64,000 nucleotides of DNA from Actinomycetota bacterium (GTDB lineage Bacteria; Actinomycetota; Thermoleophilia; Gaiellales; Gaiellaceae): NCBI GenBank assembly GCA_005885245.1, contig VAWR01000059.1, positions 12,077-76,076 on the forward strand, in the 5' to 3' direction. Positions 45,722-54,612 of this stretch are shown here, piece after piece (the first letter of the stretch is position 1; every line of letters starts with the position of its first letter). The position numbers and the translations under genes were made by a program. The notes below the pieces were generated by a model. The model worked only from the letters and a program-made list of their open reading frames with translations. It did no database searches and was not told the DNA's origin.

Positions 45722-45788
45722 GTGACACTGTGTTACTTACCGGTTCCGCCCGCTTGCGGAGCGCGCTCGCAAGCCACGTAACACAGTG

Positions 45789-45792
<4 letters not shown>
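45722..45792. repeat. Two 15-bp palindromes (GTGACACTGTGTTAC / GTAACACAGTGTTAC) flanking a GC-rich inner hairpin
   Basis: Copy 1 lies at 45722..45736 (one mismatch from a perfect 7-1-7 palindrome). Copy 2 lies at 45778..45792 (a perfect 7-1-7 palindrome that overlaps the TAA of the downstream convergent gene). Both are followed by TT. Between them, GCTTGCG (45752..45758) and CGCAAGC (45768..45774) flank GAGCGCGCT. The two copies can also pair with each other over 15 bp. Confidence 0.7.
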
Positions 45793-53299: not shown

Positions 53300-53575
53300 G
53301 TGGCAATCGTCCTGCTGCCCGCGACGCTCGCCGCAGAGGCGGGCGGGCAGAAGCGATTCGAGCTGCAAGCGGCGACGGTGGGCGAAGCGCTGCGCCAATT
53401 GCCGGTGGCAAGCCTGCTCTTCGACGAGGCGGGCGAGCTGCGCCGGCTGATCAACGTGTTCGTCGACGGAGCGGACGCGAGAGGCGGCCGACTCCTCGAC
53501 GAGCCGCTCAGCGCCGACTCCGAGGTCCGGGTCGTCGGGGCCGTCGCCGGCGGCGAACCGGGCAAGTGGCTCTGA
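53300..53575 (+). CDS. MoaD/ThiS family ubiquitin-like small protein (di-glycine followed by a 6-residue tail)
   Basis: GTG at 53300, 1 nt after the BNR remnant stop. It is 91 aa with a beta-grasp pattern (VLLPATLA ... NVFVDG ... EVRVVGAVAGG-EPGKWL). Confidence 0.65.
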   Translation: MAIVLLPATLAAEAGGQKRFELQAATVGEALRQLPVASLLFDEAGELRRLINVFVDGADARGGRLLDEPLSADSEVRVVGAVAGGEPGKWL

Positions 53576-53587
53576 GCCACAAAGTCC
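53563..53587. repeat. Direct repeat copy 1, containing the 15-bp palindrome GTGGCTCTGAGCCAC
   Basis: CAAGTGGCTCTGAGCCAC (18 nt) is identical to 53958..53975, and 5 of the next 7 nt also match. It encodes the last codons and stop of the MoaD-like gene. Confidence 0.85.
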
Positions 53588-53590
53588 GAC

Positions 53591-53899
53591 TCAGCGCCCC
53601 GCCTCCCTGATCCGATCGGCCACGTCGTACGCGTTGACGACTCGCCCTCGGTGCAGGTCGAGGTAGGCCTCCCCCAGGATCCGACGAATCTCTTCGCGCC
53701 GTCTGCGTTCGGCGTCCTCTTCCTCGCGATGAGCCACGATCAGCCGGCGGAGATGGACGTAGCTCGGCTTGGGTAGGCCAAGTTCAGCCGCGGTGGCCCC
53801 GACCCGGCGCGAGATCTCAGCCATCGGCTCTGCCCTGTCGTCGAGCGCACGCACCGCCAGGAGGATCTGCGGGTCGTACCGGGGCGCGATCTGAACCAC
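53591..53899 (-). CDS. Hypothetical small protein with possible helix-turn-helix
   Basis: The 102-aa ORF has an HTH-like segment (MAEISRRVGATAAELGLPKPSYVHLRRLI) followed by an Arg/Glu-rich helix. I recognise no family. It is bracketed by the direct repeats. Confidence 0.5.
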   Translation of the reverse strand: MVQIAPRYDPQILLAVRALDDRAEPMAEISRRVGATAAELGLPKPSYVHLRRLIVAHREEEDAERRRREEIRRILGEAYLDLHRGRVVNAYDVADRIREAGR

Positions 53900-53957
53900 G
53901 ACACAAGATTCCTACGACCCGAGCGCCGTCTGTGTCCCGATTCGGTACCGAAATGCA

Positions 53958-53982
53958 CAAGTGGCTCTGAGCCACGAACTCC
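53958..53982. repeat. Direct repeat copy 2, containing the 15-bp palindrome GTGGCTCTGAGCCAC
   Basis: See copy 1. It lies 59 nt upstream of the small minus-strand gene and ends 1 nt before the GTG of the plus-strand HExxH gene. Confidence 0.85.
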
Positions 53983-54612
53983 GTGCCGCTCAATCCCATC
54001 CGGGTCCTTGCCGATCCTTTGTCGGTGCGGGCCATTGCGGTTTTCCTCGTCGTCGTCGGCGCGCTCTCGGCGCTCGGCTTCGCGCGCCACGAGCAGCGTG
54101 CTCGTGAGCAGGGCCAGCTCGCCGCGATCGCGAGCGATCTCGCGGGACGCAGGATCGGCGTCCACTGTCCCGGCTTCCTCTCGAGCCTCGTCGACACGCA
54201 CGGCGAGGCGGGGCGCGTCCGCTTCGACGCAGCGGGCCGGCCCGCGGATCACACCGATCTGTCCCCGCAGACTTGCAAGGCCCTCCGGCATCTCGGCCAC
54301 GTCGACTTCACGTGCATCGACCGGGGCGATTGCGGCTTCACGCAGTTCGACGCCGCCTGGGCCGCACATACGCTCGCGCACGAGGCGTTCCACCTACGCG
54401 GCTTCCAGGACGAGGGCGTGACCGAGTGCTATGCGCTCCAGAACACCGCGTTCGTCGCAGAACGCCTCGGGGTCCCGGCCCTACAGGCAGCGAAGCTGCA
54501 GGCGTGGATCTACGTCAGGGGCTACCCGAACGAGCCGGAGGAGTACCACTCCGCGCGGTGCTATAGCGGCGGCCCGCTGGACCTCCGCCCGAACGTCACG
54601 AAGTTTCCCTAG
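53983..54612 (+). CDS. Membrane-anchored hypothetical protein with HExxH motif (possible zinc metallopeptidase)
   Basis: It has an N-terminal TM helix (AIAVFLVVVGALSALGF), an HEAFH motif and several Cys residues. I recognise no family. Confidence 0.5.
   Translation: MPLNPIRVLADPLSVRAIAVFLVVVGALSALGFARHEQRAREQGQLAAIASDLAGRRIGVHCPGFLSSLVDTHGEAGRVRFDAAGRPADHTDLSPQTCKALRHLGHVDFTCIDRGDCGFTQFDAAWAAHTLAHEAFHLRGFQDEGVTECYALQNTAFVAERLGVPALQAAKLQAWIYVRGYPNEPEEYHSARCYSGGPLDLRPNVTKFP

Follow-up and report, generated by a model that had tools for sequence, protein, structure and literature searches.

The locus considered here lies within the window, i.e., the whole 64-kb stretch of DNA that was analysed, which is part of a 3.2-Mb metagenome-assembled genome (MAG) of the Gaiellaceae with 67.5% GC, hereafter G000. 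Two identical 18-nt repeats, CAAGTGGCTCTGAGCCAC, are present at 53563-53580 and 53958-53975, five of the seven nucleotides that follow also match, and each repeat contains a 7-1-7 palindrome with the core GTGGCTC-T-GAGCCAC (53566-53580 and 53961-53975). The sole plausible gene between the two copies is a minus-strand open reading frame (53591-53899) for a protein of 102 amino acids (aa). When up to two mismatches are allowed, the core is found in the window only at these two positions, each counted once per strand, which gives four matches against 0.27 expected, a number reached by none of 100 shuffles. As judged from comparison of genomes, the palindromes are members of a dispersed family of symmetric sites of about 27 bp, and the gene that they enclose probably encodes the cognate DNA-binding protein.

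The arrangement is compact. Copy 1, to which no strand is assigned, spans 53560-53586 with its core GTGGCTCTGAGCCAC and 6-nt flanks on each side; it is found 10 nt beyond the stop codon of the 102-aa gene, and the final codons and TGA of a ThiS-like (MoaD-like) gene fall within it. The 102-aa gene itself (53591-53899, minus strand) encodes a small all-helical protein resembling a helix-turn-helix (HTH) protein, which is the proposed binder of the palindrome. It is preceded by a region of 61 nt (53900-53960, minus strand), a presumed promoter or 5' leader that is shared with a divergent gene for an HExxH protein; this region is weakly conserved among orthologous loci, and a promoter scan of the module detected no sigma-70 consensus in it. 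Copy 2, likewise without strand, spans 53955-53981 with its 6-nt flanks. Its near edge is 61 nt 5' of the GTG of the 102-aa gene and its core ends 7 nt before the GTG of the HExxH gene, while the repeat taken as 25 nt ends 1 nt short of that GTG at 53983. Copy 2 is a putative autoregulatory site of the 102-aa gene. The first-pass annotation had already described the repeats, the single gene and the way in which each copy abuts its neighbouring gene, and all of these descriptions were confirmed.

A dispersed palindrome family in the genome

In G000, GTGGCTC-W-GAGCCAC (hereafter pal1) is present in 51 exact copies at 30 loci, and no exact copy is found in the reversed-sequence control. The loci comprise 17 close pairs, 10 singles and 3 wide pairs, with one extra copy arising from a local duplication. 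Alignment of the copies leads to a symmetric 27-bp consensus, GA-S-Y-T-W-GTGGCTC-W-GAGCCAC-W-A-R-S-TC, in which the central base is always A or T. The spacing within close pairs peaks at 69 and 78-79 bp and is also found at about 90 bp, so that 69, 79 and 90 represent steps of one helical turn; overall, the distances within pairs show a periodicity of about 10-10.5 bp (Rayleigh R 0.74-0.82). Once the core is masked, no homology is detectable between loci except for those on contigs C32 and C138, whose outer flanks are similar too, and the repeating unit is thus short. The same comparison rules out a larger shared element, such as a miniature inverted-repeat transposable element, around the palindromes. 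A recurrent GAAACGTG near some copies was discarded as inconsistent, being present at only 5 of the 30 loci. The C138 locus is a pair 69 bp apart between nuoF and nuoG in the NADH dehydrogenase operon (G000:C138:12273-12356), and it is kept in G060, the closest relative; the C32 pair is related to it.

The gene context of the family was obtained with a crude GC3-based gene caller (3,133 genes, 88% coding). The majority of copies are intergenic and located 4-25 nt 3' of stop codons. Close pairs are found in seven convergent and eight tandem gaps and in no divergent gap, and only one of the dispersed single copies occupies a divergent gap. Five copies supply the TAG stop codon of the adjacent gene, and a few are in frame within genes, where they are translated as VA(L/Q)SH or GSEP. 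Among the latter, copies in long genes at C16:8040, C39:5153 and C109:15818 and 16280 of G000 read VALSH(K/L) or VAQSH(K/L), those on C16 and C39 being at the same positions in G060; four more read SGSEPQ, and two of these belong to an acidic tail at the C-terminus (C157). These in-frame copies recall the Rickettsia palindromic elements.

The flanks of G060 loci are 85-90% identical to those of G000, and around 13 of 19 pal1 loci are orthologous between the two genomes. In the shared pairs, the palindromes and their spacing are unchanged while the interiors of about 54 bp have diverged to about 50%. As for the distribution along the chromosome, the sites are dispersed in a 2.26-Mb contig of a distant carrier and are too few to judge clustering. 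None of these palindromes was found in the searchable literature, which reports no repetitive extragenic palindromic (REP) sequences from Thermoleophilia.

The 102-aa protein and its palindrome classes

A homologue search with the 102-aa protein retrieved 232 matches; a length of exactly 102 aa is shared by 95 of the 120 listed. An AlphaFold2 model built on a 30-sequence alignment (pLDDT 88.8) places helices at residues 10-19, 26-39, 47-83 and 90-101. In the model, the three N-terminal helices are HTH-like; the third begins at an invariant PSY (P45-S46-Y47), is 37 residues long and is followed by the fourth. The putative recognition helix starts at P45-S46-Y47, and the extension of this third helix is possibly a dimerisation element. 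The protein has no Pfam, NCBIfam or PADLOC family, its match in PHROGs is marginal (E 0.057), and a profile search of the PDB returned nothing meaningful and no sequence relative. Similarly, a Foldseek search of the PDB with the model gave no match with E below 1 (best E = 1.1); the weak, non-significant top matches are end-binding HTH domains of transposases and can serve as a lead only. A profile search of 1.84 billion representatives collected 509 clusters (50% identity) in the family. The best 150 of these are all stand-alone proteins of 67-170 aa, with no fusion to a catalytic domain among them. Since it has no catalytic domain, the 102-aa protein cannot by itself be a transposase or recombinase.

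The association between gene and palindrome was followed in 53 genomes of the genus, several of which are incomplete MAGs. Orthologs of the 102-aa gene (63-91% identity) are present in 12 of them, and at all 12 loci the palindrome stands on both sides of the gene, at a distance of about 75 nt before the start codon and about 10 nt beyond the stop. The first-pass annotation had considered that relatives might all carry the gene without flanking repeats, and the opposite was found. The palindrome is invariant at these loci while the coding sequence has diverged. Its centre base switches between T and A from one species to another, so the flanking copies are not consistently direct repeats. Bracketing is repeated in named MAGs down to 52% identity, and the genome carrying that 52%-identity member has 11 perfect pal1 copies.

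The gene is single-copy in G000, where a six-frame hidden Markov model search detected exactly two members of the family, each bracketed by its own palindrome. The second member, on contig C8 (G000:C8:25760-26098), belongs to a paralog clade that is bracketed at matching relative positions by CAA-GTAACAC-W-GTGTTAC-TTG (the GTAACAC family, hereafter pal2), and a third clade is bracketed by GTAACAG-N-CTGTTAC. In G000, pal2 has about 10 copies, which are distributed over 5 loci and likewise arranged as pairs between convergent genes. The window contains one such pair, at 45722-45736 (GTGACACTGTGTTAC) and 45778-45792 (GTAACACAGTGTTAC), 56 bp apart in a gap between convergent genes and with a GC-rich hairpin between the two copies; by its sequence, this pair is assigned to the site family of the C8 paralog. 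Across 38 tabulated loci of the three clades, the upstream palindrome is 63-142 nt before the start codon in 34. In clade 1, which includes the window and extends in named MAGs down to 52% identity, all 13 loci have the upstream copy at 68-88 nt from the start codon, and 12 of the 13 have the downstream copy within about 15 nt of the stop.

In the same 38 loci, the class of palindrome was compared with the residues that follow the invariant Pro-Ser-Tyr with which the long helix begins. Proteins with PSY-VH[LV]RR are associated with the arm GTGGCTC at 13 of 13 loci, and those with PSY-QR[VI]R with the arm GTAACAC, again at 13 of 13. Proteins with PSY-E(R/Q) or PSY-QQ are associated with GTAACAG at 8 of 10 loci, the other two being L085, which has GTAACAC, and L093, which has none.

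The abundance of pal1 also differs with the presence of the gene. Exact copies range from 12 to 51 in the 12 gene-bearing genomes, except for one 60%-complete genome with two, both flanking the gene; in the 41 gene-less genomes they range from 0 to 15, with none in 23. Indeed, at least 10 copies are found in 11 of 12 gene-bearing genomes versus 1 of 41 gene-less ones (Fisher p = 2e-9). Identity of LeuS was used as a single-marker distance yardstick among the genomes of the genus, and in the LeuS-close group, where gene-bearing and gene-less genomes are interleaved, the difference in copy number persists (Mann-Whitney p = 9e-4). The ratio of exact to one-mismatch copies is 277:14 where the gene is present and 70:37 where it is absent, the decayed share being about ten times higher in the latter genomes (odds ratio 10.5, p = 2e-13). 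In G000, allowing 0, 1 and 2 mismatches gives 51, 52 and 57 copies, so that degenerate members are almost absent. The pattern of conservation indicates purifying selection or another homogenising force that is dependent on the gene.

The first-pass annotation had proposed that the palindrome could be the operator of the small HTH protein and had also allowed for a genome-wide REP-like element unrelated to the gene. The link to the protein is upheld by covariation, co-occurrence and decay, and the element is indeed genome-wide; what does not stand is a private operator, as the palindromes form a site family, nor is that family unrelated to the gene.

Movement of the module and alternative explanations

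The palindrome-gene-palindrome unit is found in at least three genomic contexts. In context A, it lies between a PPOX-like gene, in some genomes accompanied by BNR and ThiS genes, and the HExxH and Bmp genes (G000, G018, G060 and G042); in context B, between a 69-aa gene and a ClpS-like gene (G012, G022, G003 and G019); and in context C, between two other convergent genes in G011, the unit of G062 having matching flanks in a comparison of flanks only. Sites that are occupied in some genomes can be empty in others. In G000, site B holds a gene-less palindrome pair 110 bp apart with matching flank types, where four relatives are occupied, and site C is 137 bp without palindrome. Derivation of close pairs from the module by internal deletion was discarded, the 95-nt interior of the gene-less pair on C3 of G000 scoring within shuffles. 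Site A exists in three states. In G063 the ThiS and HExxH genes are adjacent with no palindrome, and in G041, G005 and G066 exactly one palindrome is present without the gene, the G066 copy having a mismatch and the G041 copy being the sole perfect pal1 of that genome. Adjacency of the MoaD-like and HExxH genes without the cassette, anticipated in the first-pass annotation, was thus found both with one palindrome (G041) and with none (G063). The right flank of the single palindrome matches that of copy 2 at the occupied site of G042, and in G041 its left flank has homology with what lies left of copy 1 in G000, so that occupied and single-palindrome states differ by the gene plus one palindrome. 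This difference is the one expected from recombination at or between palindromes, and both integration and deletion would fit. Taken together, the sequence comparisons indicate that the module has changed chromosomal position at least twice.

These states are also what would be expected if the palindromes were att-like recombination sites, the 102-aa protein an accessory or directionality factor, and the gene plus one site a circle moved by a separate recombinase, with the dispersed copies as landing sites or scars. The three contexts, the three states of syntenic sites, the composite flanks of the single copy, the gene-less pair of G000 at a site occupied in four relatives, and the resemblance, weak and non-significant, to transposase end-binding domains all speak for this reading, and the first-pass annotation had proposed a site-specific cassette whose predicted empty site does exist. 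It is nevertheless unlikely. No recombinase gene is present in or beside the unit in any of the three contexts, and the best 150 of 509 family clusters include no catalytic fusion. Tyrosine recombinase sites (Xer/dif, att) use a crossover spacer of 6-8 bp, which the 7-1-7 palindrome does not have. In addition, rare recombination between identical sequences of 15-27 bp would suffice for two relocations within a genus, and this reading leaves the helical phasing and the strict conservation of about 50 copies unexplained.

A second alternative involves the true REP system of the same genome. In this reading, pal1 is an ordinary selfish repeat of the REP or REPIN (REP doublet) type, moved in trans by a Y1 transposase of the REP-associated tyrosine transposase (RAYT) type, and the small gene is a bystander in a REP-prone slot. 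G000 holds six Y1_Tnp matches, and at G000:C42:3706-4387 a textbook REP-RAYT locus is found, a Y1_Tnp (PF01797) gene with perfect palindromes of 25-29 bp, CGTACCGGTGCC-W-GGCACCGGTACG, on both sides. Exact copies of this REP family number 24 in G000, and a sister family, CGGTGTC-N-GACACCG, has 14, some adjoining the Y1 matches on C77 and C92; no REP-RAYT system of Thermoleophilia was found in the searched literature. Also in favour of this reading, pal1 is present or absent as 27-bp units among species: one slot between convergent genes, examined in 14 relatives, contains nothing, a clean single insertion of 27 bp (GACTTA-core-TAAGTC), a pair, or unrelated hairpin inserts. An insert of about 84 bp that contains a hairpin with a 9-bp stem, GGCTCAGGC-GWA-GCCTGAGCC, occupies the slot orthologous to G000:C71:6456-6553, between convergent genes, in G066:C17, G005:C60 and G042:C120, and may represent another dispersed hairpin family. 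Moreover, intergenic slots are shared with RAYT-linked pairs, as three slots with a pal1 pair in G060 hold in G000 a pair of one or the other REP family, and doublets at preferred spacings are REPIN-like. However, no Y1 gene is near any pal1 copy in G000, and the decay of copies goes with absence of the small gene, not of a RAYT. The RAYT-linked families of G000 also show the usual mutational cloud, with 24, 37 and 67 and with 14, 30 and 90 copies at 0, 1 and 2 mismatches, which pal1 does not. Finally, chance placement cannot explain bracketing at 12 of 12 loci in three contexts, together with paralogs bracketed by different palindromes. Movement of pal1 by a RAYT is, for these reasons, improbable.

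A function at the RNA level has to be considered too, with the palindrome as a 3' stem-loop, either a terminator without U-tract or a stabiliser of mRNA, and the link to the protein as regulatory coincidence or RNA binding. The position of most copies shortly after stops, the 7 of 17 close pairs in convergent gaps with none in divergent ones, and the ability of pal1 sequences to fold into stable hairpins would agree with it. On the other hand, the flanks are conserved yet not covarying (27 of 51 copies complementary at the S position vs about 22 expected, not significant), and the central base has no strand bias relative to the upstream gene (14:14). A terminator scan of the module gave no terminator-like site, the flank consensus has no T-run, and an Rfam search (E up to 1) of the module and three other palindrome loci returned nothing relevant. 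One pair is inside the nuo operon, other copies are in frame within genes or in the divergent promoter region of the module, and the decay upon gene loss is not accounted for. A stem-loop acting in RNA is thus very doubtful, and an intrinsic (rho-independent) terminator was rejected on the missing T-run, the negative scan of the module and the nuo pair. An insertion with target duplication, also suggested by the first-pass annotation, is dismissed as there is no transposase in the unit, the palindrome is found at 30 loci with a centre base that flips, and it pre-exists singly at syntenic empty sites.

The genes next to the module have their own history. The ThiS/MoaD-family gene (53300-53575, plus strand; Pfam PF02597) ends in G041 and G063 with ...GGC GGC TGA (AGG-TGA), and in G000 with GGC GGC GAA CCG GGC AAG TGG CTC TGA. 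The comparison indicates that the original stop after GlyGly was lost in G000 by deletion of a single nucleotide, the T of TGA, and translation would now continue as far as the TGA at the centre of palindrome copy 1; the tail EPGKWL after GlyGly is secondary. The ThiS-like protein of G042 ends AGGS, its stop being a TAG that overlaps the palindrome at this site. G060, G018, G005 and G066 no longer have the BNR gene, and their ThiS gene is lost mostly or entirely, which suggests that this gene pair is decaying in the lineage. On the other side, the gene for the 209-aa HExxH protein (53983-54612, plus strand; it contains HEAFH) is a neighbour outside the unit and serves as synteny anchor, adjoining the site also in G018, G060, G041, G063, G066 and G005; the protein has no family match in Pfam or NCBIfam.

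Proposed mechanism and relation to known systems

The best-supported interpretation of the palindrome is that of a double-stranded binding site of the 102-aa protein. It is favoured because the site is symmetric and centred on A/T, is distributed 14:14 between strands, has no flank covariation, is helically phased, covaries with the putative recognition helix, and is conserved in dependence on the gene. The protein would bind the palindrome as a symmetric dimer, with GTGGCTCWGAGCCAC over GTAACACWGTGTTAC as the predicted preferred duplex. Binding about 75 nt upstream of its own start would give autoregulation, with a second site just past the stop, and the protein would also occupy around 30 further loci, mostly gene 3' ends and convergent gaps. 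Paired sites in helical-turn steps suggest cooperative bridging of two bound dimers. The sites behave like REPs in that they are gained and lost as units of about 27 bp and compete with RAYT-associated REPs for intergenic slots, but they stay letter-perfect only in genomes that keep the gene. As for the module, it would most simply relocate by recombination at the palindromes, since syntenic sites in relatives hold exactly one palindrome with the outer flanks of both copies. Candidate cellular roles include an insulator or roadblock at gene ends, nucleoid structuring, and the maintenance of a REPIN-like repeat population.

Several points weigh against the binding-site interpretation. Most pal1 sites are downstream of genes and not in promoters, which is atypical for the targets of a regulator, and the HTH assignment rests on a model without significant structural neighbour. 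The covariation spans three clades and appears to reflect about two independent changes of specificity with one exception (L085), and three distant members have no recognisable palindrome, i.e., L093 plus L078 and L092, which have other motifs. In the same genus, G014 has 20 perfect GTAACACWGTGTTAC (pal2) copies, mostly singles, with no family member detected; a cognate gene was not found at its two close pal2 pairs (C1:274465/274518 and C2:286711/286766), and this case represents either an assembly gap or a real exception to co-occurrence. G048, a 74%-complete genome, has 15 pal1 copies and no gene. More generally, the incompleteness of the MAGs implies that a 'gene-less' state can reflect an assembly gap. 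The LeuS yardstick is imperfect as well, with G018 and G019 falling in the far group although the neighbours of their module are 83-89% identical to those of G000. The LeuS of both is only 67-69% identical to that of G000, despite 83-89% identity of the G018 genes around the module; the genus may have two LeuS lineages, or the cause may be horizontal replacement or wrong binning of contigs. Lastly, doublet spacing of the pal1 kind is typical of ordinary REPINs too, and spacing alone is no proof of bridging by a protein. Indeed, REPINs are known for doublets at preferred distances whose spacers are poorly conserved (Bertels & Rainey 2011, PMC3116915).

The closest parallel is with the REP/REPIN-RAYT systems of Pseudomonas fluorescens and E. 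coli (PMC3116915). Both have short palindromes dispersed outside genes, chiefly near gene ends; in both, doublets recur at preferred distances with spacers of low conservation, and a single-copy gene has the repeat on either side. Both are apparently inherited mainly vertically within a lineage, and genomes without the gene contain few and decayed repeats. The true REP-RAYT locus on C42 of G000 has the same layout, and its REP pairs use the same slots. Unlike in these systems, the gene flanked by pal1 encodes a 102-aa all-helical protein without the Y1/HUH domain (PF01797), copy number is low (at most 51) with almost no mutational cloud, and the flanks have no GTAG or CGTC-type tag. With regard to a REPIN-type doublet as the unit, pair interiors are without homology, single 27-bp insertions occur, and the perfect palindromes leave the inverted orientation of a REPIN undefined. 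The layout is like that of REP-RAYT, and membership of that class is not assigned, as the defining Y1 transposase was searched for and is absent from the module, the six Y1_Tnp matches of G000 lying elsewhere.

A different comparison is with autoregulated HTH proteins that have palindromic operators, and with MatP/matS, SlmA/SBS and Noc/NBS, which rely on tens of palindromic chromosomal sites. The small predicted dimer-type fold, the two-fold symmetric site of 15-27 bp, its presence in the upstream region of the gene itself, its change together with the putative recognition helix, and the tens of strictly conserved sites per genome with helically phased pairs are in line with these proteins. 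The differences are that the 102-aa protein has no sequence relationship or significant structural relationship with any of them, that pal1 is mainly downstream of genes and not in target promoters, that pal1 is gained and lost as inserted 27-bp units with the gene bracketed on both sides, and that binding is here a prediction. Mobile cassettes represent a third comparison, namely the pdif modules with XerC/D sites of Acinetobacter plasmids and integron cassettes with attC. They share with the module a one-gene unit between short palindromic sites, varied contexts, and empty sites that keep one copy, while pal1 differs in having no associated recombinase, a 7-1-7 site instead of an 11-6-11 dif or an attC, and a chromosomal distribution over 30 loci, most without a gene between the sites.

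A more specific model that joins these features is possible, although still tentative. It pictures a vertically inherited pair similar to REPIN-RAYT, in which a small, single-copy, non-catalytic DNA-binding 'master' keeps the sites at gene ends letter-perfect, either through host selection (e.g., for protein roadblocks or insulators where genes are closely packed) or through a role in copying. The gene would ride between its own sites and relocate by recombination, and the classes GTGGCTC, GTAACAC and GTAACAG would have co-diversified with their proteins across the Gaiellaceae.

REP-type repeats are among the commonest non-coding features of bacterial genomes, and their function is debated. 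To our knowledge, the RAYT transposase is the only dedicated partner known for them. In G000, a true REP-RAYT system stands beside a look-alike with a small putative DNA-binding partner, from an undescribed family of 509 clusters that has no Pfam model. For annotation, the palindromes explain stop codons and in-frame peptides (VALSH, GSEP) in neighbouring genes. If the protein does bind the sites, a 'hypothetical' protein that is widespread in soil Gaiellaceae would gain a family of sites and a probable function, and the three natural pairs of protein and site specificity would make a recognition code directly testable. Dispersed palindromes would then be maintained by a binder and not by a transposase, which would bear on whether REP-like repeats are selfish or serve their host.

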